A stretch of DNA of 64,000 bases from a virus (taxonomy: Duplodnaviria; Caudoviricetes), in IMG/VR virus record IMGVR_UViG_3300001765_000027, positions 1-64,000 of that record. One strand, 5' to 3'. Of the stretch, positions 3,346-46,763 are shown in pieces. The notes under the pieces were generated by a model. It was not told the DNA's origin and did not search any database. It saw only the letters and a list, made by a program, of their open reading frames with translations. Numbering within the stretch: the stretch's first letter is position 1; each line of letters starts with the position of its first letter. The position numbers were made by a program, and so were the translations under genes.

Positions 3346-3767
3346 GACTAGCTTTCTACAAGGGCCGTACTCGGCTATTCAATAGGGCCGTGTCTTGGTG
3401 GACGCATGGCCCGTACTCTCATACAGAGCTAATACTTGGCAATGAGATGGACGGCACTCTGGTATGTGCGTCATCTAGCTGTGTGGATGGAGGTGTGCGC
3501 TTTAAGAACATGGCGCTAGATGACAACCATTGGGATGTTATGGAAATACGCGGAGATTCCTTAGCTGCGTATAACTGGTTTATGGCTCATACAGGCTTAC
3601 CTTACGATGTTCTAGGCTTAGCTGGTTTTGTAGGTCGTAGAGGTCTTGACGATAAGAATAAATGGTTTTGTTCTGAGGCTTGCGCAGCCGCTTTAGGTAT
3701 GGAAGAGCCGTGGCGGTATGATCCTAATACGCTGTATGTAGTCGCTAAGCAGTTTTTGCAGATTTGA
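3342..3767 (+). CDS. permuted papain-like (YiiX/YaeF-type NlpC/P60) amidase
   Basis: YSHTEL His motif precedes KWFCSE Cys motif (permuted catalytic order). Confidence 0.7.
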   Translation: MRLAFYKGRTRLFNRAVSWWTHGPYSHTELILGNEMDGTLVCASSSCVDGGVRFKNMALDDNHWDVMEIRGDSLAAYNWFMAHTGLPYDVLGLAGFVGRRGLDDKNKWFCSEACAAALGMEEPWRYDPNTLYVVAKQFLQI

Positions 3768-3793
3768 AATCGATTGCAAACCGGAGGTAGCTC

Positions 3794-11073: not shown

Positions 11074-11110
11074 ATAGCCCTAGGGATTAGTCTCTAGGGC
11101 TATTTGTTTT
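11074..11110 (+). terminator. intrinsic terminator
   Basis: ATAGCCCTAG...CTAGGGCTAT stem followed by T-run. Confidence 0.7.
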
Positions 11111-11139
11111 TGCAATCGATTTCAATTTAGGAGGTACCG

Positions 11140-19356: not shown

Positions 19357-19545
19357 ATGTCTTTTAACACACACTTACTCAGCATGGAAGAGGTATGGTT
19401 TGCTAGAGAGCATCCATACGATATCAAGGTAGTTGGTGTAAAAAAGTTGGTTGCTGAAATAGAGGATATGGAAGACGCGCTGAAGGATAAGCATGACCAG
19501 CTTAAGGTGGCAGTAGGTGAAATGACTACAAGGATGAAAAAATGA
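19357..19545 (+). CDS. hypothetical protein
   Basis: AAGGAG RBS; stop overlaps polymerase start. Confidence 0.55.
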   Translation: MSFNTHLLSMEEVWFAREHPYDIKVVGVKKLVAEIEDMEDALKDKHDQLKVAVGEMTTRMKK

Positions 19546-22220
19546 TAGACAAGAAACACTGTCTTGGTTGCCCGTTAGATGGGATATCGGCACCATCTGC
19601 TACAAAAGGCAATACCAAGGCTAAGTTTATGGTGGTTGTTGATACACCAAGTAGTTTTAACGCGGCCAAAGGTAGATTACTGTCGGAGCGGTCTAGCGGG
19701 GTGTTTGCAGAACACATGGACGCCGCTGGTTTTGATACTAGTGAGTTTTCGTTTGTGCCACAAGTCAGATGCCCACACGACGCAGACCAGATTACTACCA
19801 AGGAAGTACGTGAGATTCAGAAACATTGTCGTGAGCATTTCTTGGACGATGTTTTTGAGCAGAAGCCTGAAATGATTATCCCTATCGGTGCAGAGCCAGC
19901 TAGGCAGGTATTCGGTAGGGCAGTAAAGATAACCAAAGTTCGCGGAGTGGCTGAGTTCAACGAAGAACACTCGTGCATGGTGATGGCTTTACTAAACCCC
20001 GGACAGGTGGTTATGTACCCACAGCATGCGCCTATATTCGCGGCAGACTGCCAGACCCTACGTAGAGTAGTTGATAGTGGTTATGACGTACTGGCTGCGG
20101 GTAATGCGCTACTAGGTGACTACGAGTACATAGACGATCTAGAGTTTCTGATAGAGCAAGAACCTTCCCTACTATTCTTCGATACTGAGAATACTAGTCT
20201 TGAGTATTTCAAGAAAGGCCCAGACGATGCTAGGGAATACGACCCTAAGAGACATGGTAAGGAATTCAACCCAAGTGCAGCTATTCTTACTATGCAGTTC
20301 TGTATTGAGCCGGGGAAGGCATACATGCTGGTATGGGATCACCCAGAGAAACCTATAGCCATGCGCAAGAAGCGTAAGCTGGTAGAGCAGTTAGGTAGGC
20401 TATTGTGCAATCCTAAAACTAGAGTTCTTGGGCAGAACCTGAAATACGATAACAACTACCTGTTTGAGCAAACCGGTGTGCGCTTCAAGATAGGTGGCGA
20501 TACTCTTATGCTCGCTGCCCTCCTAGACGAGAACATGATAAGCAAGAGTCAGGATGTACTGGTTAAGCATTACGTACCGGAGATGGCTGGGTATGCAGAT
20601 GCGTTCAACGCTTCTGTAGATAAGTCTAGAATGTGGGAGGTTCCTCTAGCCAAGCTTATAGGCTACGGCTGCGGCGACGTAGACTCAGGCTACATGCTGT
20701 ATAAGGCAATGTTCAAGGAGATGCGTAAGGATGACCGGCTTATTGAACACTACCGCAGGGTATCACTGCCGGGGCTTAACACATTCGCGGCGGTAGAGAC
20801 TAGCGGCATACATATTGACCAGCAGGCCTTATCTGACTTTGAAGCACTCATGGAAGTATCTGTTGCTCAGCAAGAGGCAGACCTACTAGAGCAGGTACCT
20901 AAATCAATCAAGCGTAAGCACATAGATAAGGGACTGAAGTTTAGTCGGTCAGACTTTGTACTGGATATATTATTCAGGCACAAGGATGGATTCAGGCTAC
21001 GCCCGAAGGTATATACAGCCAAGACGGCAAAGCTGCCTGCGGATAAGCGGGTGCCTAGTACATCGTCTAAAGACCACCTACCGTACTTTTTCGATGACTG
21101 TCCTTTTACCTTGCAGCTTTCCCAGTATGTGAAAGACTCTAGGTTGCTTGGTACCAACATCAAGGGATTCCAGAACAAGTATATCCATGATGGTTTGGTG
21201 AGGCCCGTATATAGCCTATGGACTACCGTTACCGGCAGGTCATCATCTGAGAACCCTAACGGGCAGAACTTCCCCAAGAGAGGCCCTAACGCTACTGCAT
21301 ACCGGAGAATCTTCGTACCACCTCCGGGTTATTACGTACTGGAGGCGGACTTGTCTCAAGCAGAGCTACGTATTGCGGCGGATATGGCTAGTGATAGGAC
21401 TATGCTTGGTATCTACCAGCAAAAGGGCGATATCCATACAGCCACGGCATTGATTACGATGGGTACTGATATGGAGCATTTTAAGTTGTTGCCCAAGGCT
21501 GAGCAAAAATCTGCGAGACAGAAGGCCAAGGCTGTTAACTTTGGTTTCATTTACGGCATGGGCTGGAGAAAGTTTATCGGCTATGCTAAGACGCAGTATG
21601 GCGTGGAGTTTACGGAGCTAGAGGCGCAACGGATACGCACTGCGTTCTTTGAGAAGTACCACGGATTGCCTGCATGGCACGATTCAACTAGAGAGGCGGC
21701 ACACAGGGACGGTATGGTTCGTTCCTACTCTGGGCGGATACGTCACCTACCTATGATTCATTCTGAGGATCAAGGCGTAGAGTCGGAAGCAGGCCGGCAG
21801 GCTATCAATAGCCCTGTGCAGGAGTTTGCTTCATCGCTAGGCATCATGGCTATCGGTAGGCTGCATGACGAGATAGACCCTGAGTACCTAGCACCCATAG
21901 CGTTCGTACATGACGCTATCTACTGCTACGTACCAGCTAAGTACCTTGAGTGGGGAGCCAAGACGTTGAAGCGATACATGGAGAGTAACCCCCTAGAAGA
22001 GTGGTTTAACCTACGCATGAAATGCCCCATCATTGCTGATGTTAGCTTTGGTCTTAACTTTGGTGACACTAACGAGATGGAGGGGTTATCTCTGGATGAG
22101 CCTTATGACTTCGGCAGGTTCTATGATGTTGAGCAGCAGACCGGTGTAGAGGTACCTAAGCAGAGAACACCACCCAATAGGGGCTTACGCAAGACAGACC
22201 CGTATGGGCTACCTGTTTAG
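19542..22220 (+). CDS. family A DNA polymerase with N-terminal uracil-DNA-glycosylase-like domain
   Basis: N-terminal CxxC, RCP, C, PEMIIPIGA (family-4 UDG-like); exonuclease FDTE, NLKYD, CGDVD; PolA TVTGRSSS, DLSQAELR, KAVNFGFIYG, VHDA. Confidence 0.93.
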   Translation: MIDKKHCLGCPLDGISAPSATKGNTKAKFMVVVDTPSSFNAAKGRLLSERSSGVFAEHMDAAGFDTSEFSFVPQVRCPHDADQITTKEVREIQKHCREHFLDDVFEQKPEMIIPIGAEPARQVFGRAVKITKVRGVAEFNEEHSCMVMALLNPGQVVMYPQHAPIFAADCQTLRRVVDSGYDVLAAGNALLGDYEYIDDLEFLIEQEPSLLFFDTENTSLEYFKKGPDDAREYDPKRHGKEFNPSAAILTMQFCIEPGKAYMLVWDHPEKPIAMRKKRKLVEQLGRLLCNPKTRVLGQNLKYDNNYLFEQTGVRFKIGGDTLMLAALLDENMISKSQDVLVKHYVPEMAGYADAFNASVDKSRMWEVPLAKLIGYGCGDVDSGYMLYKAMFKEMRKDDRLIEHYRRVSLPGLNTFAAVETSGIHIDQQALSDFEALMEVSVAQQEADLLEQVPKSIKRKHIDKGLKFSRSDFVLDILFRHKDGFRLRPKVYTAKTAKLPADKRVPSTSSKDHLPYFFDDCPFTLQLSQYVKDSRLLGTNIKGFQNKYIHDGLVRPVYSLWTTVTGRSSSENPNGQNFPKRGPNATAYRRIFVPPPGYYVLEADLSQAELRIAADMASDRTMLGIYQQKGDIHTATALITMGTDMEHFKLLPKAEQKSARQKAKAVNFGFIYGMGWRKFIGYAKTQYGVEFTELEAQRIRTAFFEKYHGLPAWHDSTREAAHRDGMVRSYSGRIRHLPMIHSEDQGVESEAGRQAINSPVQEFASSLGIMAIGRLHDEIDPEYLAPIAFVHDAIYCYVPAKYLEWGAKTLKRYMESNPLEEWFNLRMKCPIIADVSFGLNFGDTNEMEGLSLDEPYDFGRFYDVEQQTGVEVPKQRTPPNRGLRKTDPYGLPV

Positions 22221-30105: not shown

Positions 30106-30648
30106 ATGAGTTCTACAGTGTTGGGTATCGACCCTAGCCTGACTAGTCTTGGTCTGTCCTACCGCGTCAATGATAAGGTCTTAGCTTTTTGTATCGGCGG
30201 TAAAGAGCGCAGGGGTATCGATAGGATAAAGTACATACGAGACTCTGTAGCTCAAGCCTTGGATATGTACGAACCTACACTCGTGGCTTACGAGGGGTAT
30301 GCGCTAGGTTTCAGGGGTAAGAGCAATATTATTTTTGACCTAGGGGAATTAGGTGGAGTTCTAAAACTATTGATTTTAGAGCGCGGTATTGATATATTGC
30401 TTATCCCGCCAACGAGTTTGAAATTGTTTGCAACGGGCAAAGGCAATGCAGATAAAGAGCAAGTGTCGGTAGCGTTAAGAGAAGAGTTAGGCGTATCATT
30501 CTCTACAAGCGACCAGTATGATGCAGCAGGGTTGCTGTTGATGGGCGAGATGTACTATAGTAGTAATGCGCCATCTAGGAGAGGGCGTAAACCTATCGCC
30601 CACAGGCAACGAGCATTAGCTGCAAGCACGTTGTTAGAAGCAAATTGA
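30106..30648 (+). CDS. ruvC: RuvC-like Holliday junction resolvase
   Basis: VLGIDPSL, YEGY, ELGGV, P..LK..ATGKGNADK, DQYDA. Confidence 0.85.
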   Translation: MSSTVLGIDPSLTSLGLSYRVNDKVLAFCIGGKERRGIDRIKYIRDSVAQALDMYEPTLVAYEGYALGFRGKSNIIFDLGELGGVLKLLILERGIDILLIPPTSLKLFATGKGNADKEQVSVALREELGVSFSTSDQYDAAGLLLMGEMYYSSNAPSRRGRKPIAHRQRALAASTLLEAN

Positions 30649-30763
30649 AATCGGTTGCAAAAGTAGTCTGTTGGTTGCGTTAGTTTTTTGGTTTAAGTAG
30701 CATACGGTCATGCAAGAAAGGTTCTTGCACGTTTTTCGGTAAACATGAAAGGAAGGTGGAATT

Positions 30764-31981
30764 ATGGCTAAGTCCAAGTTTGCAGTTGGTAATAACGTTA
30801 CATTCAAGGGTTACTCTGATAACGTACCGGAAGACGAGCAATTGCTTGTTGAAGGTGAGAGCTACGAAGTAGCTGAGGTCAACGACAAGGAGAAATCTAT
30901 TGCCGTGCAGATCGATAACCCCGACTTCAACGCCAAGAAAAAAGAATCTGAAGCCAATCCCAAGACTATTCTTGTCGATGTTTTCTTCGACGAGGTTGAT
31001 CTTGCGGCTGACGAGGCTGAAGAAGCGGAAGAGGAAGTGGAAGAGAAACCCGCTCGTGGTCGTACCGTGAAGGCTGCACCAGCTAAGGCTAAGGCCAAGG
31101 TTGAGGAAGCTGACGAGGCTGATGACGAAGCTGAAGAAGCTGAAGAAGAGGCTCCCAAGGCTAAAGCTAAGGCTAAGCCAGCCGCTAAGGTGGCAGCTAA
31201 GCCGGCAGCAAAGGCTAAGGCAGTAGCTAAACCGAAGGCTAAGGCTGTTGCTAAGCCCAAGAAGGAAGAGGCTGAAGAAGTCGATCCGTTCCCCGAACTT
31301 GAAAACGAGAACGAGGAAGTCCTTGCTCTGGTTAACGATGCTGAGGATATTCTTGAACTGGCTAACGAGTTGGTTGAAGACAGCGCGGCTCTGGACTACA
31401 AGCTTGGTGGCGTTCTTTACCACATTCGTCTTGGCAAGTCTTACCAAGAAGTCGATCCTGCTTACAAGGAAAAGGGCGGATGGCAGCAGTACATCGATGA
31501 CAAGCTCCCCGGACTTGGCTATCGCAAGGCAATGCACCTGATCCAGATTTACTACAATTTCTGCCTCAACGGTATCGATGCAGAGAAAGTGGCAGAACTT
31601 GGTTGGACTAAGTGCAGCAAGATTGCTGCGGTTATGACTTCCGAGAACGCTGAAGAGCTTGTCGAGCTTGCCGAGAAGTCTTCGGTTGCTGAGTTGTCCG
31701 ATACCATCAAGGAATCGTACAAGGAAGTCGGCGGCGAGAAGGGCGAAAAGCGGCGTAAGCTGATGTTCAAGTTCCGCCTTTGGGAAGACCAAGCGGCGGC
31801 TGTTGAAGAGACCATCAATGGCGTTGCTGAGCAGATGGGCTTCAAAGACCTTAGCGATGCTTTCGAGCATATCGTTATGGAATGGGCGGCTGAGCATCCT
31901 TTGACTAAGAAGGCACCGGCTAAGGCCACAGCGAAAGCTGCCCCGGCCAAGGCTACCGGCAAGGTCAAGGCAAGCGCTTAA
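30764..31981 (+). CDS. abundant acidic, Ala/Lys-rich protein of unknown function
   Basis: Strong RBS, strongly biased codons, acidic tracts and H1-like KAKA/KPAA repeats, LGWTK motif. Confidence 0.75.
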   Translation: MAKSKFAVGNNVTFKGYSDNVPEDEQLLVEGESYEVAEVNDKEKSIAVQIDNPDFNAKKKESEANPKTILVDVFFDEVDLAADEAEEAEEEVEEKPARGRTVKAAPAKAKAKVEEADEADDEAEEAEEEAPKAKAKAKPAAKVAAKPAAKAKAVAKPKAKAVAKPKKEEAEEVDPFPELENENEEVLALVNDAEDILELANELVEDSAALDYKLGGVLYHIRLGKSYQEVDPAYKEKGGWQQYIDDKLPGLGYRKAMHLIQIYYNFCLNGIDAEKVAELGWTKCSKIAAVMTSENAEELVELAEKSSVAELSDTIKESYKEVGGEKGEKRRKLMFKFRLWEDQAAAVEETINGVAEQMGFKDLSDAFEHIVMEWAAEHPLTKKAPAKATAKAAPAKATGKVKASA

Positions 31982-32000
31982 TCTGGTAGTTCCGCTAATG

Positions 32001-32041
32001 AAGGGGCAGGGCCTGTTATGGGTCTTGCCCCTTTTGTCTTT
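32001..32041 (+). terminator. intrinsic terminator
   Basis: AAGGGGCAGGGCC...GGTCTTGCCCCTT stem followed by T-rich run. Confidence 0.7.
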
Positions 32042-32052
32042 AGGAGTTCATA

Positions 32053-32766
32053 ATGGTTGCTGCAAGACGATCTAGGACGAGGCCCAGTACTACAAGTCCT
32101 GAGGCTACTACAAATAAGCTACATACGCGTGTTCAACTTGAGTATAGGGATATACATGAACTACAGAACTACGAGTTCAACCCAAGAGACAATGGCCCTG
32201 CTATTGATTCTGTTGCTGCCTCTATTCGTACTTTTGGCTTCCTCATTCCTGTTGTTGTTGATTCCAGTAATGTTCTTGTTGCGGGTCATACACGAGTTGC
32301 GGCGGCTAAACAACTGGGCATGCACGAGGTTCCGGTTGTCCAAGTAGATCACTTAAGCGAAGCTGAAATAAATGCTTTCCGCGTTATTGACAACAAGGTA
32401 GCAGAACTTGCCAAGTGGGACTTTGATCTACTATCTGGCGAAATATCCAAGCTGCAAGGGTCAGGGCTTATGCTTACTGACTTCGGATGGACTCGTGAGG
32501 AGATTGATTGCCTTACAGACGTAGTTGCTGATGATTGCCTTAACTCATCTAACTTGGTAGACGCTGCGGCGCAAGACCGTATTCGTAGGTCAGAGCGCAG
32601 GGCACCAGCTACTGCTAGGTTTGTTTTAGGAGAGCTTGTATTTTTTATTCAAGCGGCAGACTACAGGGAATGGGTAAATGGTGTGCGCACCCTACACGAC
32701 TACGACGAGCAGGCTATCATTGCTGATCTAAAGCGTAGGCTAGGTATCACGCAGCATCAAAATTGA
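32053..32766 (+). CDS. ParB/Srx N-terminal domain protein
   Basis: YEFNPR, SI..FGF..PVVVD, AGHTR, R..DNK...LAKWD..LL. Confidence 0.88.
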   Translation: MVAARRSRTRPSTTSPEATTNKLHTRVQLEYRDIHELQNYEFNPRDNGPAIDSVAASIRTFGFLIPVVVDSSNVLVAGHTRVAAAKQLGMHEVPVVQVDHLSEAEINAFRVIDNKVAELAKWDFDLLSGEISKLQGSGLMLTDFGWTREEIDCLTDVVADDCLNSSNLVDAAAQDRIRRSERRAPATARFVLGELVFFIQAADYREWVNGVRTLHDYDEQAIIADLKRRLGITQHQN

Positions 32767-32788
32767 AATCGATTGCAAAGGTAAAATC

Positions 32789-34279
32789 ATGGTAAATAAT
32801 AGGCCGATTGGTAAGGTGACGCCAGACCATACAAACCCACGTAAGGCGGATCAGGCTAGGCTAGGGTTACTTCGCCTATCCTTAGCTAAACTGGGGTTCA
32901 TCATGCCCGTATATTCCACACCTACAGGCATGCTTCTATCTGGGCATCAACGTAGAACCGTAGCCTTGGATATGGGTATCAAGAAGCTTCCTGTAGTTAC
33001 TGTTGATATACAGGATAAGGATGTTAAGGGTATCAACATCTTATTCAATCGTGCTACAAATGATTTCAATGCGTTTGATACCGGCAGCAACATACAAGGA
33101 AGGTTAAGCCTTGACGATGTTATCGCTGCCGCAGAGAACCTTCCTGATTTTGAGGGTGAGGATTGGCTAGCCTTAGCCTGTGAGGAAAAACCTGTAGTAG
33201 ATTTCGGAAAAGATACCGGAGACCAGTACGATAAAAAGGCGGTCGTTCTGGCTGACAGCGTAATGCGAATGGGCATCCGCATACCGGTTGTAGTATCGGA
33301 GTCGGGGCAGGTAGTTAACGGCGTATATAGGCTATTTGCCGCCAAGGAAGCAGGGGAGAAGACATGGCCTATCATCGTAGTACCTGATGAGCTTGCCAAG
33401 GTAGCTTTGAACTTCCTCAATTACCTAAGCATGGACTTTCATGTGGATGATGATTTTGCCAAGATGATGCGTTACTCTGCGTATCGTCGCCCACAGAATA
33501 ATCGAGGCAATGTACCTAAAGCGTATCGCTACTGGGCTAATGGTGGGCGCACTCTACTTGACCGTGATTCATACAGTACAGACTACTGGCGTAAGTTCCG
33601 CGATCTGCACGGTAACGGTTTGCTAGATTTCGGTGCTGGTTTGTGCAAAGTAAAGCCTTTCTTGGAAGAGCGTGGCATGAACTGTAGTGAGTTTGAGCCT
33701 TACCGTATAGACCCTTCAGCAGAGAATGGTGTGCCTAGCCCTGACTTTTCAAAGAAAATGGCTAAGGTGTTCCTAGACGAGATTGCTGACGGTAGGCACT
33801 TTACGTCTATCTTCCTAGCCTCAGTAATGAACAGCGTACCGTTTCCGCAAGACCGCATGGCTGTACTAGCTATCGTACATGCCCTATCGGATAAGGATAC
33901 CTGTATATACGGTACTTGTAGGGATATAAGCGATTTCAATTATGAGTATGGTGGTATACGCAACGCAAACTACTTTGTGTTTGATTCGGAACCGGGGGTG
34001 CGTATAGGTGATGTAATGCGTAACCCTAAGGTGCAGAAGTTCCACACAACAGAAGAGGCTGAGACTATGTTTTCTCGCCTGTGGAACAAGCGGGAGTTTC
34101 ACCCCGGAGGTAACGTGTTCTACTGGAAGCTATCATCGCCCAAGGGGGTTAATGCCAAGGTGCTTGGTAAGGCGCTAGAGATTGAGTTTGATCTACCTTA
34201 CTCAGATGGAACCTCTATGGGGCTGGTCGAATATGCCAAGGATGCCTTTGCCAAACGACTAAGAATTGTGGTACCCTGA
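32789..34279 (+). CDS. tandem ParB-like domains fused to a SAM-dependent methyltransferase-fold domain
   Basis: NPR / LSGHQR and VNGVYR ParB motifs; LLDFGAG SAM-binding motif, FEPY, FLASVMNSVP amino-MTase-like motif. Confidence 0.78.
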   Translation: MVNNRPIGKVTPDHTNPRKADQARLGLLRLSLAKLGFIMPVYSTPTGMLLSGHQRRTVALDMGIKKLPVVTVDIQDKDVKGINILFNRATNDFNAFDTGSNIQGRLSLDDVIAAAENLPDFEGEDWLALACEEKPVVDFGKDTGDQYDKKAVVLADSVMRMGIRIPVVVSESGQVVNGVYRLFAAKEAGEKTWPIIVVPDELAKVALNFLNYLSMDFHVDDDFAKMMRYSAYRRPQNNRGNVPKAYRYWANGGRTLLDRDSYSTDYWRKFRDLHGNGLLDFGAGLCKVKPFLEERGMNCSEFEPYRIDPSAENGVPSPDFSKKMAKVFLDEIADGRHFTSIFLASVMNSVPFPQDRMAVLAIVHALSDKDTCIYGTCRDISDFNYEYGGIRNANYFVFDSEPGVRIGDVMRNPKVQKFHTTEEAETMFSRLWNKREFHPGGNVFYWKLSSPKGVNAKVLGKALEIEFDLPYSDGTSMGLVEYAKDAFAKRLRIVVP

Positions 34280-34302
34280 TCGTTCACTAAGGCGGAAACA
34301 CC

Positions 34303-35046
34303 ATGAGCATAGAAAAGATTGCTGGCAACGTAGTTCACTACCCTAAGCGGCGTAACGTGTTTGAGTTTGACGCAGAGGTTAGCGACATATTCCCTGATAT
34401 GGCTAAGCGCAGTATTCCTATGTATGAGGAGGCGCATAGGCTGCACGTATCTTTGCTTAAGGATACGCTATCTAAGGATCATGTAATAGTCTATGATGTG
34501 GGGGCCTCTCGTGGGCACTTCTTCAAAGAGATTTGCAATCAATTACAAATACCTATAGAGACAGGTAGCAGTAGCTTTAATTTCACTGCTATAGATATGT
34601 CACCGTTTATGCTAAACAGGCTATCTATTGAGATGCCTTGGGTACATACGCTAGAGGCAGACGCGAAGAACCTAGTAACTATGCCAGCGCAGGCGGATGT
34701 AATCTGCATGTTCTACATCTTGCAATTCTTACAGGAAGATAAGGATAAGGCTAAGTTGCTTGACTGGGCTTATGAGTCATTGCGGGAGGGTGGCGTACTT
34801 ATACTTGGTCAGAAAGACGAGCCTACAGATACCTACTCTAAACAGTTTGCCTCTGAGTATTATGATTTCCGCAGGGCTAATGGTTATTCAGACGAAGAGA
34901 TAGAGGCTAAGACAGTAGCCTTGCGTAACTCGATGTGGCCTTCATCCCCGGCGTGGTTAGAGAGTATGTGCTACGGCGCTAAGTTCAAGGATTACGTTGA
35001 GACTACGCGGTGGCTACAGTTTTCCACAAGTATGTGTACCAAGTAA
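34303..35046 (+). CDS. cmoA: CmoA-like (carboxy-SAM synthase family) protein
   Basis: FD.EV...FPDM..RS.P.Y, VYDVGASRG, AID.SP.M, LQF, GG.LIL..K, DF.RANGYS..EI..K...L.N.M match CmoA as I recall it. Confidence 0.85.
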   Translation: MSIEKIAGNVVHYPKRRNVFEFDAEVSDIFPDMAKRSIPMYEEAHRLHVSLLKDTLSKDHVIVYDVGASRGHFFKEICNQLQIPIETGSSSFNFTAIDMSPFMLNRLSIEMPWVHTLEADAKNLVTMPAQADVICMFYILQFLQEDKDKAKLLDWAYESLREGGVLILGQKDEPTDTYSKQFASEYYDFRRANGYSDEEIEAKTVALRNSMWPSSPAWLESMCYGAKFKDYVETTRWLQFSTSMCTK

Positions 35047-35055
35047 GGAGCCGTC

Positions 35056-35832
35056 ATGGACGATGATACTGGGTCGCAAGGGCAAGGTCGCCGTATATCC
35101 CGTAGGAACAGGGCTGGATTTGCTTTTACTAGATCGTCTCTAGCTGACTCTACTAGCGGTGAGGGCGTAGGTGATGTAGCCGATATTAACGAGGAAGTGG
35201 AGGCTATGGCTAGCGAGCCTACGGCAGTAGTACAGCCACGGCCTGAGGCCTTAGTTCCGGCAGCTACCGTAGCGGGTAATCCGTCTGAGGAGTTTAATCC
35301 CAGAGACAGGCTTGGTCAGGTACGGCGTAGGGCTGGAGAGTACGAGAAGGAATATAGGCTAGGGTTACTGCATCGTCTTATGATGCGCCGTATCCCTATC
35401 GATGAGATTGCAGACCAGCTAGGTATATCTGTATCGCAGGTATATCGTGATAGGGAAGAGCTTAAGCGTAGGCTACGCCAAGATGCTCGTGCCTTAGACA
35501 TTGAAGAGATAATTGGTGATAGTAAAGGGTACTATGACGAAGCTGCGGCTATGGCTATGCGAGCCGCGTCCAACTCAAATATACCCATGCCCATGCGGCT
35601 TGCTGCTATACGTACTGCGCTAGCCGCTAAGAATGACATGCACAGGTTCTTCCAGACAGCGGGAGTGTACGATGTGTTACGCTTCAAGCTAGCACAAGAC
35701 GGTACCGGTATGTCTGACGTTAAGAGACTTATGGAAAATACAGAACGTCTATTGCAGGGCGAGTCTCTTGAGTTTAGTAATGTGGCTAAAGAGGTTATAG
35801 ATTCAGGTAGCCACGAGGAGCTTGAACTGTGA
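35056..35832 (+). CDS. putative terminase small subunit
   Basis: HTH IDEIADQLGISVSQVYRD; overlaps terL start. Confidence 0.6.
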   Translation: MDDDTGSQGQGRRISRRNRAGFAFTRSSLADSTSGEGVGDVADINEEVEAMASEPTAVVQPRPEALVPAATVAGNPSEEFNPRDRLGQVRRRAGEYEKEYRLGLLHRLMMRRIPIDEIADQLGISVSQVYRDREELKRRLRQDARALDIEEIIGDSKGYYDEAAAMAMRAASNSNIPMPMRLAAIRTALAAKNDMHRFFQTAGVYDVLRFKLAQDGTGMSDVKRLMENTERLLQGESLEFSNVAKEVIDSGSHEELEL

Positions 35833-37787
35833 CAGCAGCTAGAGTTAGGCGTGGTAGAAGACCAACTCCGGGGGTAGCTAGTGGAGTTAGTGAGCAAGCG
35901 GCTAGGGTAGTTAAGCAGGCTTACGAGGCTATAGAAACCTGTGATAATAAACTATTCGGTAGGATGTATGCCTACTCGCTAGAGCGTAAGGTGTATAGCA
36001 ATGATCCGCACCTGTTCAATTTCCTAAAGCACCTAACACACGCACCTGTAGGCATAGAGGAGTTTCTAGATAGCCCTGAGTTTCTTGGGGCTACTGATAT
36101 AACACTATGGCCTGAGGTTCGTAAGGCGATCATCGCTATCAATGAGAATTGGTGGATGGGGCCGGGAGAGTCTTACGCAGAGGCTGTATTGATGGGGTCT
36201 ACCTCGTCTGGCAAATCAGAGATAGCCAAGATTACCACTCTATATCATCTGTACCTTCTGTCCTGTGTGGATGTACCGCAGGCGCTGTACGGCCTACCTA
36301 AGACTACCTCAATAGTCTTCGCCATCATGGCGGCTAAACCACACGTAACCAAGAAAGTTCTGTACGCACCGCTTCGTAAATTGGTGGAGGGAATACCCTA
36401 CTTCCAGAAGCATCTACGGCCTAACAAGCTGGTAGAGTCTGAGATGATCTTTGACGAGAAGAACATACGTGTAGTTCCGGGTGGCTCTGATGCTGATGCC
36501 ATCTTAGGTGAAGCTATCATCGGCGGAATCATAGATGAAATTAACTTTATGAATGTGGTACTAAAGTCTAAGAGGGCTGAAGTAACCACAGGAAGGGCTG
36601 GTGTATACGATCAGGCCGAGACTATCCATAGTGCAATGACGCGCCGTAAGAAAGGCCGGTTTATCAGCCAAGGCCCAGTGATAGGAGTTATATGTACCTC
36701 TTCATCTACCCGTTATAAAGGCGACTTCACTGACAAGCGTAAACAGCAGGTAATACAGCATAAAGAGAAGGGTGTATACATATACGATAGGCCACAGTAT
36801 GAGGTATGGCCGGCAGAGCGGTATTGTGGCGATAAGTTTAGATTGTTAGTAGGTAATGATGTAGTTAGTGATACTCGCGTATTATCTGATGGCGAGAAAG
36901 TACCGGAAGGCTCTATGGTGCTAGACATACCAGTAGAGTATCTATCTGATTTTCAGGCTAACCCTCATTCTGCTTTGCGTGACGTATGTGGTATATCCAA
37001 TAGCTCAATCAGTCCGTTCTTCCGCAGACGCTTCAAGATATACGAAGCTGTCGATCTTGGTACAGAGCATGGGGTAGAGTCTTTCCTAGATAAGGACAAT
37101 GTGATACTGGGCGTAGATGATATGCCAAGAGTCAAGTTCGGTCACTACTGCCCCAATCCATCAAGGCCAAGGTACGTACATATCGACCTATCAACAACGG
37201 GGGATAGATGCGGTATAGCGATGGTGCGATTCGACGGCATGGTAGATGTAGAGCGTAATGGTGGGATCATTGAGAAGCTTCCTATAGCTACCGTAGAGCT
37301 TGCTTGCTCTATCGCACCAGACGCTAACAATGAGCTACAGTTTGCCGAAGTACGGATGTGGGTAAAGCAACTACGCGATATGTATGGGTACCCTATCAAG
37401 TCTGTAACTTACGACGGTGTATTCAGTATTGAGTCTATCCAGCAATGGCGTAAGCAGGGGATGAAGACAGGGCATATATCGGTGGATAAAACCTCAGTGC
37501 CGTATAAGCAGCTACGAGACACGTTCAATGACGGTAGGCTGCGTATGCACAGCCAAGATGTGTTGATTAACGAGTTCTTTGAGTTGGAGTATGATGAGGT
37601 TAAAGACAAGATAGACCACCCGCCTAATGGATCGAAGGACGTAGCCGACGCTGTATGCGGGGCCTACTATTCCATGCTTATGCGTAGAGCGTCATGGACT
37701 TCTGCACAGATGGATGATGAAACGCTTGCTGCTAGTGGCGGTAGGGTGGAGTACGACGAGAGGTATGAGACTAGAGAGCGTTCGTAG
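35829..37787 (+). CDS. terminase large subunit
   Basis: GSTSSGKS Walker A, GIIDEINF Walker B, SS coupling motif, HIDLS nuclease Asp, TYD, DHPP.GSKDVADA. Confidence 0.9.
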   Translation: MTAARVRRGRRPTPGVASGVSEQAARVVKQAYEAIETCDNKLFGRMYAYSLERKVYSNDPHLFNFLKHLTHAPVGIEEFLDSPEFLGATDITLWPEVRKAIIAINENWWMGPGESYAEAVLMGSTSSGKSEIAKITTLYHLYLLSCVDVPQALYGLPKTTSIVFAIMAAKPHVTKKVLYAPLRKLVEGIPYFQKHLRPNKLVESEMIFDEKNIRVVPGGSDADAILGEAIIGGIIDEINFMNVVLKSKRAEVTTGRAGVYDQAETIHSAMTRRKKGRFISQGPVIGVICTSSSTRYKGDFTDKRKQQVIQHKEKGVYIYDRPQYEVWPAERYCGDKFRLLVGNDVVSDTRVLSDGEKVPEGSMVLDIPVEYLSDFQANPHSALRDVCGISNSSISPFFRRRFKIYEAVDLGTEHGVESFLDKDNVILGVDDMPRVKFGHYCPNPSRPRYVHIDLSTTGDRCGIAMVRFDGMVDVERNGGIIEKLPIATVELACSIAPDANNELQFAEVRMWVKQLRDMYGYPIKSVTYDGVFSIESIQQWRKQGMKTGHISVDKTSVPYKQLRDTFNDGRLRMHSQDVLINEFFELEYDEVKDKIDHPPNGSKDVADAVCGAYYSMLMRRASWTSAQMDDETLAASGGRVEYDERYETRERS

Positions 37788-39642: not shown

Positions 39643-40050
39643 ATGGATGCCGAGCGTTTAATTGAGTTAGCCAGAGAGTCTGATATGTTCGTTACTGTCG
39701 AGATGAAGTGGCAGTACGCTAGGTGGGAAAAACTAGCTGAGCTAATAAACGATGATATGGAAGCACACACAGATAAGGGGAATCCTAAAATGAATTTTGG
39801 TAAAGCATTAGAGGCAATGAAGAGTGGGCTTAAGGTAAGCCGTGATGGGTGGAATGGTAAAGATATGTTTCTATTCCTTGTTCCGGGTAGTTCTTTTGAG
39901 GTGAATAGGCCTCCCCTACTTGGTATCTATCCGGCTGGTACTGTTGTTAGCTACCACGCGCATGTTGATATGAAAACGGCACAAGGCGATATAGTTCCTT
40001 GGCTATGTTCGCAGACAGACATGCTAGCTGAAGATTGGGGTGTTGTCTGA
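39643..40050 (+). CDS. DUF2829 protein (Tad2 anti-Thoeris family); core starts at ATG 39790
   Basis: MNFG.ALEA.K.G.KV.R.GWNGK.MF and [11 protein letters not shown] signature. Confidence 0.85.
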   Translation: MDAERLIELARESDMFVTVEMKWQYARWEKLAELINDDMEAHTDKGNPKMNFGKALEAMKSGLKVSRDGWNGKDMFLFLVPGSSFEVNRPPLLGIYPAGTVVSYHAHVDMKTAQGDIVPWLCSQTDMLAEDWGVV

Positions 40051-41629: not shown

Positions 41630-41706
41630 GCCCCTGTAGCTCAGTTGGTTAGAGCAACCGACTCATAATCGGTGGGTCACAGGTTCAAGCCCTGTCGGGG
41701 GCACCA
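41630..41706 (+). tRNA. tRNA with CAT anticodon (Ile2 or elongator Met)
   Basis: Cloverleaf; ACCGA-CTCATAA-TCGGT arm, GGTTCAAG T-loop, encoded CCA. Confidence 0.93.
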
Positions 41707-41708
41707 GT

Positions 41709-41784
41709 GCAGGTATCGTCTATCGGTTTAGGACACCATCCTTTCACGGTGGGAAGCGGGGTTCGATTCCCCGTACCTGTACCA
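41709..41784 (+). tRNA. tRNA-Glu(TTC)
   Basis: CCATC-CTTTCAC-GGTGG arm, GGTTCGATTC, encoded CCA. Confidence 0.93.
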
Positions 41785-41790
41785 AGTAAT

Positions 41791-41875
41791 GCGAGCGTGG
41801 CGAAATTGGCAGACGCAGCAGATTTAGGTTCTGCCGCCGCAAGGCGTGGAGGTTCAAGTCCTCTCGCTCGCACCA
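41791..41875 (+). tRNA. tRNA-Leu(TAG)
   Basis: GCAGA-TTTAGGT-TCTGC arm, long variable arm GCC-GCAA-GGC, encoded CCA. Confidence 0.95.
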
Positions 41876-45104: not shown

Positions 45105-46763
45105 TGATTGCGCAAGGTAGTCTGGTACGACATAATGGGCTTGTTCGATTCCAATCCATAAAGGAGAAACCAATGCTGCATTTTATCTACGCCTACTCTG
45201 AGCATACTCCGCGTAACGGCCACACTACCAAGTCTGTGAAAATCTACCAGATCAAGAAGAATACTCCGGTGTTTGTGGCTAGCGGCTCCGATCAGTTCGT
45301 TGGTGAGCTTCAGCTAGTGCTCCAAATTATGGAGTCAGCAAAGCTGTTGCCGCGCAAGGCCTTCGTGAAGAATGCTAATACCGGCAGTAACAATATGTGC
45401 ACTGCTTGGCAGTTACGTGAGGCAGGCATTGCGGATGTGGTTAGGATATAATTTGTAATCGATTTCAATCCATAAAGGAGAGACACATGCTGGACATACT
45501 TCGTAAGTGCGTATTCCATCCCTACACCAAAGGCCGTGAGCATCCGGTATTCTCTTTGGTACTGTATTACGTGCCGGGGCATATGAATACTGGTCAGCAG
45601 AGGCTGGGGTATCGTTTTCGTATGAATGGTAAGATGCTGTTTCAGGGCGAGGATTATGGCTGTAGCCCATGTAACGCGTGGGACAGCGACGAAGCGGTAG
45701 CTGTGTTGATGAGCTTTCTCTGCCTAAAACCGGGTGATACGGACAGGGAATACTTTGAGAAATATACTGAGGAGCAGATGGACTTCTGCACCACGCATGG
45801 CGAGGCTCTTTGGTGTTGCGTGAATGATAGGTTCGGGGAGGATGTATGCAACTGACTATATACCCTACAAAGATTGTAGTGCAGCGCGACTTGGGTGATA
45901 AAGTACGCTACAAAAACGAGAGTCATTTTCTGTATCACCTGAAGAAGGAGCTACAGAAACGTGGCAATGATTGCATTAAAAAGCTGGCGTGGAAAGACGG
46001 TAATCTAGTGGATGATTACATGCACTACATACGTGAGCGTAAAACAGGAGCATACATAGTGTATGACAGTTGGTATCAGATTAGATGTTGCGCTGAGGAA
46101 TTCAATAAGCGCGGGGAAGTGACTATGGTACTAGATGGGGGAGGACTGAAATGAGAAATGCTCTGGCTTTTGAGCATGGAGATACCACCTGTGCTAGCGA
46201 ACCGGGTGTGTTCTGCATGTTCCTATTCACCAAGCACTTTGGTACTGCGCCGGTATGCCACCTATTTGATGACCAGCCGCTGCATGAGCATACGGATGGT
46301 GAATTTCATGGTTGGCTAGCCAGATGCCCTAAGTGCGTAGAGTTATTTACTGGCGATAGAATCGTGCAAAAGAAGGATTTGCTATGAAACCTGAGGTGAG
46401 AGTATTCAGTAAGGATGCACCCTGCACCAAGGTAGAAATCTGGAATTGCTTTAGGGCGCGTTCTGGTTTCGTTTCGGTACAGGTAGTACAGGCCCACTCT
46501 GAGATTGGGCTAAACGTACCTAGAGTGATGGAGCGTAACGCTCGACTCACACGCGCTGAGCGCAAGGGTATTGAGTATTACATACTCACACCTGAAGGGG
46601 AGGAATGGCTGCTAGCCGGCATCAGAGCCTTTCTGAAGAATCATCCATTACGCGCAGATGAGGTAGCGATAGAGCCACCATCTGATAAACCTGCTAGGTT
46701 GCGTCGTACCCGCTGACGTAGTATATTTCGGTTTCGTTAATTCATTCCATAAAGGAGACACAT

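Follow-up and report, generated by a model that had tools for sequence, protein, structure and literature searches.

The window, that is, the whole 64,000-nt stretch analysed here, covers the initial 64 kb of a 102,004-bp phage genome that is complete (rated 100%) and has direct terminal repeats. It contains a run of five genes, encoding a ParB-like protein (ParB1), a ParB-ParB-transferase fusion, a CmoA-like protein, a TerS-like protein and the large terminase subunit (TerL), which are separated by spacers of 22, 23 and 9 nt followed by a 4-nt overlap between the terS-like and terL genes. An earlier note on this DNA had described three consecutive genes directly upstream of terS/terL, and the ORF list confirms them at 32053-32766, 32789-34279 and 34303-35046 (237, 496 and 247 aa, respectively), all on the + strand. 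The features of the locus are as follows.

32000..32034, + strand: terminator-like hairpin with a 16-bp stem, 8 G-C pairs and a T-rich tail, from a consensus scan only
32053..32766, + strand: ParB1, stand-alone ParB-like protein, 237 aa (ParB_N, 7.1e-08; phrog_620 ParB-like, 6e-47)
32760..32779, no strand: copy of a dispersed 20-bp near-palindromic repeat, core TTGMAATCGATTKCAA
32789..33148, + strand: ParB/Srx-fold domain 1 of the fusion, ~aa 1-120 (ParB_N match; Noc/ParB, 8.3e-09 with the family profile)
33176..33538, + strand: ParB/Srx-fold domain 2 of the fusion, ~aa 130-250 (ParB_N stretch at 153-198; secondary structure of the model)
33551..34279, + strand: class I SAM-dependent transferase domain of the fusion, ~aa 255-496 (PF13489, UbiG, AF2 model, Foldseek)
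34303..35046, + strand: CmoA-like protein, 247 aa, proposed carboxy-SAM synthase (TIGR00740, 4gek, phrog_4752)
35056..35832, + strand: putative small terminase subunit, 258 aa, from position and helix-turn-helix similarity only
35829..37787, + strand: large terminase subunit, 652 aa (phrog_9, 6.1e-10; phrog_2, 1.1e-09)

The hairpin lies between an upstream 405-aa gene and the ParB1 gene. Scanning for terminators returned 8 sites versus 5.6 expected in shuffled sequences, with the stem at 32000..32034 by far the longest, and located no hairpin of comparable strength before terL; the hairpin likely marks the start of a transcription unit comprising the module and the terminase genes. The near-palindrome copy sits in the 22-nt spacer, just 5' of the fusion gene, and the repeat, which is probably the 16-bp site of the earlier note, has 16 matches with no more than 3 mismatches in the 64-kb window versus 0.01 expected. 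The similarity of the TerS-like protein to helix-turn-helix families ranges from 5e-4 to 6e-3, every match being below the cut-off, and its homologues follow the CmoA-like gene in close relatives; TerL homologues, 50-80% identical, occupy the same position in related loci.

The N-terminal ParB/Srx-fold domain of ParB1 is of the type seen at the N-terminus of ParB-fused DNA methyltransferases and matches the N-terminal part of phrog_498 'DNA methyltransferase' (1.4e-39), while profile searches matched the C-terminal half to no known family. Residues N43, G78, H79, R81, D113 and N114 are invariant, and in 71 of 80 viral loci the gene immediately preceding the fusion gene encodes a ParB1 homologue. 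Complex prediction for ParB1 and the fusion scored 0.53 (runs 0.63, 0.53 and 0.00; best of three controls, 0.00), with contact agreement between runs of at least 0% and partner pLDDT of at least 61. In the benchmark, 58 of 80 solved complexes attained this mark, as did 2 of 110 mismatched pairs, with scores of at most 0.60 accounting for only 7 of the 80 solved complexes and for both mismatches. The prediction weakly suggests that ParB1 may bind the fusion protein, and its pass may reflect memory, because ParB N-domain dimers have already been solved.

The fusion protein matches ParB_N at 4.6e-07, with ParB similarity at residues 3-103 and 153-198. The ParB_N match, together with NPR-, GxxR- and ENxxR-type boxes, identifies a ParB/Srx (ParB-CTPase) fold. 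Domain 1 keeps all three ParB box-like motifs, NPR, SGHQR and N-I-L-F-N-R-x-T-N-D, the third with a Phe in place of the acidic residue, and an alignment of 74 family sequences shows conservation of N16-P17-R18, G52-H53-Q54-R55 and N87-R88-x-T90-N91-D92. Domain 2 is degenerate, retaining N177, G178 and R181. One fusion homologue carries an intein inside the third, nucleotide-box motif, an insertion point that argues for a central functional role of this motif. Over its full length (residues 1-492) the protein matches phrog_5475 'unknown function' (3.4e-126), and the ParB-ParB-Methyltransf_23 fusion family comprises 754 relatives at E ≤ 1e-5 among 8000 scored candidates.

The C-terminal domain shows the glycine-rich motif I (VLDFGAG; LLDFGAGLCK in the ORF2 translation) and the acidic residue after strand 2 that define the class I SAM-dependent methyltransferase fold. 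It further displays an acidic E303 (FEPY), SVMNSVPF after strand 4, conserved K414, Q416 and K417, and E466-F-x-L-P-Y. D280-x-G282-x-G284, E303 and the residues that follow strand 4 show little or no variation across the 74 family sequences, and the domain looks intact. PF13489 (Methyltransf_23) matches 35 of these 74 family members; in the window protein itself the domain is below Pfam detection, and it matches UbiG (4kdc) at 1.8e-5. The AF2 model of the fusion is of high quality (pLDDT 92.7, pTM 0.89), and Foldseek retrieved class I small-molecule and RNA methyltransferases on top (~1e-5), several of the top neighbours being N-methyltransferases (ToxA, CcbJ, glycine sarcosine N-methyltransferase and METTL6). 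Outside the ParB fusion the domain hardly occurs (241 representatives in 1.84 billion); it is Methyltransf_23/UbiG-like and falls in no known DNA methyltransferase family.

That family placement bears on the earlier suggestion that DFGAG together with SVMNSVP points to an exocyclic-amine target. Both strings are present in the ORF2 translation, but the argument drawn from them is unsupported because no known DNA methyltransferase family includes the domain: the fusion matches neither PF01555 (N6_N4_Mtase) nor PF02086 (D12 class), and its counterpart of the (D/N/S)PP(Y/F/W) motif IV, which is not present, is N-S-V-P-F in a short helix. In the model, SVMNSVP forms the generic short helix after strand 4 that is typical of small-molecule enzymes. 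An N-linked product is possible, with nothing in the analysis pointing to it.

Among NCBIfam models, CmoA (TIGR00740) fits the CmoA-like protein best (2.7e-30), although the score of 105.8 bits stays under the cut-off of 193.3; the top PDB match is E. coli CmoA (4gek, 5.6e-19), and the protein also matches phrog_4752 (6.8e-40). The validated phage enzyme SpCmoA, identical in S-B05 and S-B43, likewise falls below the cut-off with 115.6 bits, so this threshold does not separate active phage enzymes. Although identity is only 27% to E. coli CmoA and 26% to SpCmoA, the family motifs (TIGR00740/NF011995) are present: the N-terminal F-x-F-D...F...S-x-P-x-Y, L-Q-F after strand 4, K165 and the helix D-F-x-R-x-N-G-Y-S...I...K198. 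Across 121 unique module-linked CmoA-like proteins, these positions are retained overall in 110-120 sequences (F20 in 119; F28, P37, D62 and F137 in 120 each; S66 in 116; K165 in 118; K198 in 119), the exception being Q136, kept in 92 and replaced by M in 28. TIGR00740 was also the best match of all seven divergent module-linked CmoA-like proteins tested. The position of E. coli CmoA Arg199, which in the 2013 structure papers is said to contact the Cx-SAM carboxylate, holds Thr in the window protein and R, T, E or A in 47, 28, 26 and 9 of the 121 sequences, respectively. Since the active SpCmoA has Glu there, Arg199 is not required in phage CmoA, and by its sequence the module protein looks like a working CmoA.

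We found no match in the complete 102-kb genome to PF00145 (C5 methyltransferase, CmoX type), PF08003 (Methyltransf_9, CmoB), PF01555 and PF02086 (N6/N4 and Dam-class methyltransferases) or PF00733 (CmoY-type ligase), and PF13649 retrieved the CmoA-like gene only; PF00145 and PF08003 were likewise matched in none of five further module-bearing phage genomes. The claim that CmoB is missing thus extends from the window to the whole genome, family searches bear out a single transferase partner that is not of the C5 type, and the ParB fusion is the sole candidate partner in the complete genome. According to PMC10491745, Lys91, Tyr200 and Arg315 of CmoB hold the Cx-SAM carboxylate. Comparison with E. 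coli CmoB gave a weak hhalign match (16% probability) in which only the Tyr200 column could be aligned, with N348, and which identified no Cx-SAM-specific residue in the fusion transferase.

A survey of gene neighbourhoods, another proposal of the earlier note, placed a CmoA-like ORF next to the fusion gene at 133 of 138 loci (65/68 viral and 68/70 bacterial, metagenomic or genomic, counting only those with at least 1500 bp of downstream flank), loci that are not independent, many being near-identical, with 121 unique CmoA-like sequences among the 138 matches. The three viral exceptions comprise two contigs with the CmoA-like gene elsewhere and a 6.5-kb fragment (L079); no CmoA-like gene was found in the available sequence of this fragment or of two fusion-bearing bacterial loci (L093 and L102). 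The fusions are 31-79% identical to the window protein, and the hosts include Verrucomicrobiota, Desulfovibrionaceae, Lachnospiraceae, Bacteroidales, Vibrio, cyanobacteria, Anaerolineae and Actinomycetota. The fusion and CmoA-like genes overlap by 4 nt (gap -3) in several lineages, the same gene order is found in the cultured Pseudomonas phage SM1, Aeromonas phage HJ05 and Gordonia phage Evaa, and the module adjoins the terminase genes in every member of the window's clade examined. This arrangement is far beyond chance, and near-obligate linkage would be expected of a Cx-SAM donor and its transferase. The overall reading of the earlier note holds for the module, its CmoA linkage and the lack of CmoB and C5 enzymes, and is unsupported for the amino target.

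Between the fusion and CmoA-like genes, 87 of 160 related loci encode a capless HAD-fold protein of 140 aa. The structure most similar to its model (pLDDT 95.3) is the 3'-phosphatase domain of T4 Pnkp (TM 0.71-0.72, E 1.5e-05), with the Pnkp1/Rnl/Hen1 complex also among the structural matches; phosphatase activity is uncertain because the second catalytic Asp is replaced by Asn (DLNYT). The gene has no match in the window genome at E ≤ 1 and is absent from the whole close clade.

Among known Cx-SAM systems, the nearest is CmoA/CmoX(/CmoY) of Synechococcus phage S-B43, which produces 5-carboxymethylcytosine (5cxmC; PMC12783734) and bears out the link between phage CmoA and C5-cytosine carboxymethylation mentioned in the earlier note. 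Both phages have a CmoA homologue with similar TIGR00740 scores, without CmoB, beside a proposed DNA-directed transferase, and ParBc/ParB-domain proteins are described as frequent in CmoX contigs (PMC12783734, section 13). According to the same section, CmoX has a C5-methyltransferase fold (PF00145), an SPPC motif and an Arg350 equivalent, a context absent from the window genome given the lack of a PF00145 match; the window partner is instead a Methyltransf_23-like domain fused to two ParB folds, and no CmoY-type ligase accompanies it. Section 14 of that paper mentions a preliminary search in which phage CmoA was linked to no candidate carboxymethyltransferase for N6-A or N4-C, and our literature search retrieved only this one paper on phage Cx-SAM, whose available part reports no non-C5 partner of this kind. 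As in E. coli CmoA/CmoB (tRNA cmo5U34), the genes of a Cx-SAM synthase retaining the family motifs and of a class I transferase are adjacent; unlike there, PF08003 is absent, Arg199 is not conserved and the transferase is fused to ParB domains in a phage late operon. Recruitment of unrelated partners has precedent in MccS/MccB-CTD and TglE/TglF, where CmoA homologues work with Cx-SAM-specific methyltransferase-fold enzymes, MccB-CTD lacking significant similarity to CmoB (PMC10491745). Compared by description, these enzymes differ in their substrates (peptidyl-cytidylate and a peptide thiol) and have neither ParB domains nor a packaging context.

The best explanation, in which our confidence is just short of even, is that the CmoA-like protein makes Cx-SAM and the ParB-tethered transferase carboxymethylates phage DNA. 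ParB1, the fusion and the CmoA-like protein would form a donor-plus-transferase system analogous to CmoA/CmoB and CmoA/CmoX. Judging by homology, the CmoA-like protein would convert SAM and host prephenate into carboxy-SAM, and the C-terminal class I domain of the fusion, a candidate Cx-SAM-dependent carboxymethyltransferase, would use it for carboxymethyl transfer, as suggested by the near-obligate gene linkage and the lack of any other transferase partner. Phage DNA would be the substrate, to which the two ParB/Srx-fold domains would bring or clamp the enzyme, with ParB1 probably joining in and nucleotide gating perhaps involved. The ParB fusions and published ParB-dependent phage DNA-modifying enzymes point to this substrate; the case draws on the ParB domains and context because the transferase resembles small-molecule and RNA methyltransferases and no DNA family. 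The operon shared with terS/terL suggests that the reaction may be timed after replication, around packaging, and co-transcription suggests coupling to packaging itself. The chemistry differs from the Cys-dependent C5 attack of CmoX, which is excluded here because the genome has no such enzyme or motif, and the acceptor atom cannot be read from the sequence, candidates being N6-A, N4-C, some other N or O of the ring, and backbone or terminal groups.

Were the fusion an ordinary SAM-dependent orphan DNA methyltransferase serving anti-restriction, the CmoA-like protein would act separately, draining SAM, making Cx-SAM that blunts SAM-dependent host defences or feeding host CmoB. Such a division of labour, which we consider unlikely, would accommodate the lack of an identified Cx-SAM-specific residue and the three loci without a CmoA-like gene in the available sequence. 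ParB-fused methyltransferases are described as common in phages and prophages with a suggested anti-defence role (bioRxiv 10.1101/2025.10.10.680097), and SAM depletion by CmoA has been raised as a possibility (PMC12783734, section 14). Independent functions, however, predict neither that the two genes adjoin at 133 of 138 loci spanning many phyla, sometimes with stop/start overlaps, nor the near-confinement of the C-terminal domain to the fusion, and the characterised CmoA homologues in the available texts each have an adjacent dedicated carboxymethyltransferase, namely CmoB, TglF and MccB-CTD (PMC10491745) and CmoX (PMC12783734).

The Pnkp-like HAD-fold neighbour in so many relatives hints instead at polynucleotide ends or RNA rather than at bulk base modification, for example carboxymethylation of terminase-made DNA termini, or tRNA/RNA repair or protection in the manner of Pnkp/Hen1. 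The terminase neighbourhood throughout the window's clade and a tRNA-Leu(UAG) gene in the window, a tRNA that carries cmo5U in E. coli, would fit. Yet the fusion/CmoA pair persists in the window genome and its close clade without the HAD-like gene, whose product has its second catalytic Asp replaced; phage tRNA genes are not constant (none in HJ05, one each in SM1 and Evaa); and ParB folds are DNA-associated in known cases, which makes action on ends or RNA fairly improbable. The transferase fold, nearest to small-molecule methyltransferases, might also act on a free nucleotide, another small molecule or a protein; a cytidine or deoxynucleotide held on the nucleotide-binding ParB fold, for instance, could be carboxymethylated and then enter DNA before replication, or have no role in DNA. 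In line with this, the intein interrupts a nucleotide-box motif, ParB folds are described as binding CTP, ATP or GTP (bioRxiv 10.1101/2025.10.10.680097) and MccB-CTD carboxymethylates peptidyl-cytidylate with Cx-SAM from a CmoA homologue (PMC10491745). Against it, neither a nucleotide kinase nor a dedicated link to a polymerase is part of the cassette, ParB1 is like the ParB type associated with DNA methyltransferases, and the phage ParB partners described in PMC13229309 work on DNA polymers, so that we regard a free substrate as quite improbable.

Returning to DNA carboxymethylation, the product could be N6-carboxymethyl-adenine or N4-carboxymethyl-cytosine, a narrower version of the best explanation that we think rather unlikely. 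In the absence of a C5-type enzyme, a class I transferase would most simply act on heteroatoms; Asn348, which hardly varies and precedes Pro351-Phe352, occupies the catalytic post-strand-4 position, and N-methyltransferases are among the top structural neighbours. But O- or other N-acceptors fit equally well, and the amino-methyltransferase families and motif IV are missing, with a small-molecule-type helix in that place. Broader, and possible though we lean against it, is the proposal that the module introduces a second natural class of DNA carboxymethyltransferase with a distinct mechanism, ParB-clamped and UbiG-like, moving the carboxymethyl group from phage carboxy-SAM to a DNA heteroatom (N6-A, N4-C or other), with a nucleotide-gated ParB1/ParB heteromer controlling where or when. 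If true, this would be a base modification not yet seen in nature, made by a system distributed among the phages and prophages of eight or more bacterial phyla; our literature search found no modified nucleoside reported for any phage with the module. The pairing, kept across phages and prophages of many phyla, makes the module a strong candidate for a new route of DNA carboxymethylation.

Known ParB systems resemble the module in part. ParB-fused N6/N4 DNA methyltransferases (phrog_498; PF02195+PF01555) also join a ParB/Srx fold to a SAM-dependent transferase and are typical of phage and prophage settings, but their catalytic domain is PF01555 rather than PF13489-like, and the window system has two ParB folds, a separate ParB1 and an obligate CmoA-like neighbour. 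In 5mYOX/ParB, ParB-like proteins with no obvious DNA-binding domain are reported to activate phage thymine dioxygenases on dsDNA, with terminase genes near in 19.2% of contigs (PMC13229309); there, an Fe/2-oxoglutarate dioxygenase works with a separate ParB, whereas the window protein unites its ParB folds and a SAM-family transferase in one chain. One survey names PF13489 as one of the domains whose fusions to the ParB fold are commoner in phages than in bacteria (bioRxiv 10.1101/2025.10.10.680097); these ParB-CTPase-fold/Methyltransf_23 fusions have the same architecture as the window fusion, and the available text of the survey gives them no function and does not mention CmoA. The new element relative to that survey is the linkage of the fusion to a CmoA-like gene.

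The strongest single fact to emerge is a near-obligate pairing of the CmoA-like gene with the gene for the ParB-ParB-class I transferase protein (the fusion), in genomes without any known user of carboxy-SAM (Cx-SAM). The three consecutive genes that the earlier note had described ahead of terS/terL were all recovered as open reading frames (ORFs), in the following arrangement:

32053-32766, + strand, ParB1, ORF of 237 aa
32789-34279, + strand, fusion, ORF of 496 aa
34303-35046, + strand, CmoA-like gene, ORF of 247 aa
35056-35832, + strand, terS-like gene, assigned by position and weak helix-turn-helix matches only
35829-37787, + strand, terL, assigned by PHROGs matches

In the ORF listing, all large genes lie on the + strand. 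The module spacers measure 22, 23 and 9 nt, and the terS-like and terL genes overlap by 4 nt. A consensus scan placed a terminator-like hairpin with a 16-bp stem at 32000-32034, immediately ahead of ParB1, and found none of comparable strength before terL, which, together with the tight spacing, suggests that the five genes from ParB1 to terL form a single transcription unit. The source virus record comprises 102,004 bp with direct terminal repeats and is rated 100% complete, the window being its first 64 kb. Genes for RecA, a RuvC-type resolvase, a helicase and a family A DNA polymerase lie upstream of the module, and ThyX, dUTPase and Tad2-like genes downstream. The polymerase (19542-22220) carries an N-terminal stretch of the uracil-DNA-glycosylase superfamily (PF03167, 2e-05, just above the cut-off), and the Tad2-like (Thoeris anti-defence 2) domain protein (39643-40050, 2.4e-25) is encoded directly after the dUTPase. 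A 405-aa protein (30764-31981; phrog_17202, 'unknown function') has extended repeats, acidic and Ala/Lys/Pro-rich, that are reminiscent of the tails of histone H1, and close relatives keep its gene directly upstream of ParB1.

The best model for the CmoA-like protein is TIGR00740 (2.7e-30, 105.8 bits against a cut-off of 193.3), and E. coli CmoA is its nearest relative of solved structure (5.6e-19), with 27% identity. It is 26% identical to SpCmoA, the CmoA of Synechococcus phage S-B43, which has been shown to produce Cx-SAM (PMC12783734). The gene clusters of phages S-B05 and S-B43 are 100.0% identical over CmoA, the ligase CmoY and the C5-cytosine partner CmoX, so the S-B05 protein served as SpCmoA. 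With 115.6 bits, SpCmoA also falls under the TIGR00740 cut-off, as do the module-linked proteins of Pseudomonas phage SM1 (91.7), Aeromonas phage HJ05 (120.8) and Gordonia phage Evaa (105.4). Active-site residues were assigned by alignment with validated enzymes. Invariant among eight aligned CmoA sequences are F20, F28, S35, D62, G64, S66, G68, L135-Q136-F137, G158, K165, I195, K198 and L202, and most invariant positions are kept in 110-120 of 121 unique module-linked homologues. The column of E. coli CmoA Arg199 holds Thr in the window protein, which is not decisive, because the validated SpCmoA has Glu there.

Relatives of the module are visible at the protein level only: a megablast search with the 5.7-kb module returned no match among 50,697 phage records, and the protein-level search found the fusion in 14 of these records, from 12 SM1/PaMx31-group Pseudomonas phages, HJ05 and Evaa. 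The order ParB, fusion, CmoA-like gene, terminase recurs in all three annotated phages (SM1, HJ05 and Evaa), with two small reverse genes interrupting it in Evaa, where gp5 is the CmoA-like protein. Viral contigs yielded 443 stretches encoding a fusion relative, from which 80 loci were kept; bacterial contigs, with one genome per species, yielded 98 stretches, of which 80 loci were again kept. Using an HMM built from our CmoA alignment, we found a co-directional CmoA-like ORF in 65 of 68 viral loci whose downstream flank reaches 1500 bp or more, at distances from a 79-nt overlap to 3.7 kb, and within 5 kb in 68 of 70 bacterial loci with enough flank, frequently with a 4-nt overlap. Two of the three viral exceptions have a CmoA-like gene at another place on the contig (3.5e-41 and 6.3e-75) and the third is a 6.5-kb fragment; the two bacterial exceptions (L093 and L102) have no CmoA-like ORF within 5 kb. 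These counts are to be read knowing that the search HMM contains four module-linked sequences and that near-identical loci are frequent, the 138 hits comprising 121 unique CmoA-like sequences. As an independent check, TIGR00740 was the best NCBIfam match for seven of seven divergent partners, at 49.8-175.5 bits, all under the cut-off. The bacterial loci come from Verrucomicrobiota, Desulfovibrionaceae (including Bilophila wadsworthia ATCC 49260), Lachnospiraceae/Oscillospiraceae, Bacteroidales, Vibrio, Photobacterium, alphaproteobacteria, cyanobacteria, Anaerolineae, Planctomycetota and Actinomycetota. The cassette is present in cultured, easily handled phages as well as in gut-bacterial prophages (Akkermansia relatives, Bilophila, Lachnospiraceae).

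Searches of the complete 102-kb genome found no match to PF00145 (C5 methyltransferases, the CmoX fold), PF01555, PF02086, PF00733 (the CmoY-type ligase fold) or PF08003 (CmoB), so that the absence of a visible CmoB, reported in the earlier note, holds genome-wide; the sole match to PF13649 was the CmoA-like gene itself. PF00145 and PF08003 were likewise unmatched in all five further module-bearing phage genomes searched (SM1, HJ05, Evaa and two complete IMG/VR records). Each characterised CmoA homologue feeds a dedicated neighbouring carboxymethyltransferase, namely CmoB, TglF, MccB-CTD (PMC10491745) or CmoX (PMC12783734). Given the near-obligate pairing and this precedent of dedicated CmoA partners, we read the fusion as a putative Cx-SAM-dependent transferase, and its ParB folds as its means to engage DNA. 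The substrate would be DNA; this step, the acceptor atom and what ParB1 does are all inferred. A different use of the donor is conceivable: the window also encodes three clustered tRNAs (41630-41875), Met(CAT), Glu(TTC) and Leu(TAG). E. coli tRNA-Leu(UAG) bears cmo5U, and, given the phage tRNA-Leu(UAG), phage Cx-SAM could also supply host CmoB; the window tRNA set is not kept in SM1, HJ05 or Evaa.

The fusion protein is matched along its full length by phrog_5475 ('unknown function', 3.4e-126), and its C-terminal 240 residues have no Pfam match. Searched alone against 1.84 billion cluster representatives, the C-terminal part has 241 relatives at E values up to 0.001, nearly all of them proteins of ~500 aa matched at their C-terminus, which indicates that the domain is almost confined to the ParB fusion. 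Among 74 aligned full-length relatives, ParB_N is recognised in 60 and Methyltransf_23 in 35 (best 3.4e-11), and a search with the family profile retrieves ParB/Noc structures (8.3e-09) as well as UbiG (1.8e-05). An AlphaFold2 model computed from this alignment (pLDDT 92.7, pTM 0.89) was compared with the PDB by Foldseek at full length, retrieving generic class I small-molecule and RNA methyltransferases, among them 5bp9, CcbJ, ToxA, METTL6 and glycine sarcosine N-methyltransferase, and also ParB/Noc, each with an E value of about 1e-5; no DNA methyltransferase appears among the matches listed, and an Atlas structure search gave identical family labels. Conservation among the 74 relatives is complete or almost complete in motif I (D280-x-G-x-G), at E303 and in N348-S349-x-P351-F352. 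Conserved residues of the fusion with basic or polar side chains, any of which may face the transferred group, are N348, R228, R233, K414, K417 and R490. The earlier note had argued from DFGAG plus SVMNSVP for an exocyclic amine as the target. This argument fails on the model, where the N348-P351-F352 segment forms a short helix after strand 4, as in small-molecule enzymes, and not a (D/N/S)PP(Y/F/W) loop; the product may still belong to the class it named, N6-carboxymethyl-adenine or N4-carboxymethyl-cytosine. Compared as profiles, the fusion family aligns to E. coli CmoB at 16% probability (hhalign) and to our CmoA alignment at 2.4%; both results reflect the generic Rossmann fold only, and neither allows Cx-SAM-binding residues to be assigned. 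N348 falls in the column of CmoB Tyr200, one of three ligands of the Cx-SAM carboxylate (PMC10491745), a correspondence we treat as a lead rather than a test.

ParB1 has the ParB/Srx fold (ParB_N 7.1e-08; phrog_620 6e-47), over its N-terminal half it aligns with the corresponding region of ParB-fused DNA methyltransferases (phrog_498, 1.4e-39), and a homologue lies upstream of the fusion in 71 of 80 viral loci. The fusion itself contains two ParB-like stretches, the first of which keeps three box-like motifs in the 74-sequence alignment. Predicting the complex of fusion and ParB1 with SAM included gave a score of 0.53 (runs 0.63, 0.53 and 0.00; best of three controls 0.00), with run-to-run contact agreement of at least 0% and partner pLDDT of at least 61. 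Of 80 solved complexes, 58 reach the mark, as do 2 of 110 mismatched pairs; only seven of the 80 complexes, but both mismatches, reach it at 0.60 or under. The prediction lends weak support to ParB1 binding the fusion; since ParB N-domain dimers have already been solved, the predicted contact may reflect likeness alone. One fusion homologue (P0095, 857 aa) carries a LAGLIDADG-type intein of ~340 aa exactly between NILFNR and TTNDF, the most conserved motif of the ParB domain, with the C-extein beginning with Thr after His-Asn; this position marks the motif as important. No other fusion relative has a true intein, and 'intein-like' matches of ~2100 nt were rejected as ParB1 and fusion genes matching together.

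A 140-aa protein (phrog_32036) is encoded between the fusion and CmoA-like genes in 87 of 160 loci (for example L115:6506-6940, L139:7072-7491 and L003:2633-3115, the last being Evaa gp4, annotated 'phosphatase'); the window genome and its close clade lack it. Sequence searches gave it neither a Pfam family nor a significant PDB match, and it was placed by fold search alone: the model (pLDDT 95.3) is a capless HAD fold nearest to the 3'-phosphatase domain of T4 Pnkp (TM 0.71-0.72, E 1.5e-05), with HAD-like motifs in which the second catalytic Asp is replaced by Asn (DLNYT). The modelled likeness to Pnkp points to a polynucleotide substrate, and the cassette may have an end-directed or RNA-directed role.

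Phage Cx-SAM-dependent DNA modification was first shown in 2025, for a C5-cytosine enzyme only, and a preliminary search by the same authors reported no candidate N6-A or N4-C carboxymethyltransferases linked to phage CmoA (PMC12783734), the sole paper on phage Cx-SAM found in our literature search. Phage ParB-like proteins without a DNA-binding domain activate thymine dioxygenases on double-stranded DNA (PMC13229309). A survey lists PF13489 as a ParB-fold fusion partner favoured in phages (bioRxiv 10.1101/2025.10.10.680097); the accessible text of that survey gives no function for PF13489 fusions and never mentions CmoA. We found no paper linking CmoA to a ParB-Methyltransf_23 fusion, a point on which the supplementary tables of PMC12783734 and PMC13229309 might bear. 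Nor did the literature search yield any account of modified DNA in SM1-like phages or HJ05. A Cx-SAM donor with a dedicated transferase has precedents; here the transferase family is new, and the chemistry is probably new as well. A cassette with a different transferase family would broaden known phage DNA chemistry, the pairing would assign a function to a common ParB-methyltransferase fusion, and this would be the second case of ParB folds steering DNA-modifying enzymes; a carboxylate handle at a new DNA position would serve DNA labelling.

Other phage CmoA homologues have different surroundings. In Erwinia phage Y3 (L007, 4971-7562), the homologue lies beside an asparagine-synthase-like gene and an 'oxygenase', with no C5 methyltransferase annotated next to it, and in Alcaligenes phage Afa-NA1 (L006, 5947-10491), a 'DNA adenine methylase' is found 2.5 kb downstream; these neighbours may represent additional types of Cx-SAM partner.

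Finally, a 20-bp near-palindrome, AAATTGAAATCGRTTGCAAA with the core TTGMAATCGATTKCAA, occurs at 16 window sites with at most three mismatches, against 0.01 expected, including these copies:

3761-3780, palindrome copy
11109-11128, palindrome copy
30642-30661, palindrome copy
32760-32779, palindrome copy
45452-45471, palindrome copy

The copies lie on both strands, mostly in intergenic positions, close to gene ends or immediately ahead of start codons, and the core recurs at varying positions in 12 of 90 related-phage loci; the element looks like a dimeric protein-binding site or a regulatory element. A role of the 16-bp palindrome as a ParB site was rejected, the element being dispersed and tied to the module by one spacer copy only. 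As to the host, the nearest fusion relative among bacterial genome bins (L091, 79% identity) lies on a 3.2-kb contig in a Sulfuricella sp. MAG, and the window stretch was found in one sequencing run only, a microbial mat metagenome that may be the source sample, and in no RNA run; together they offer a weak hint of the host.
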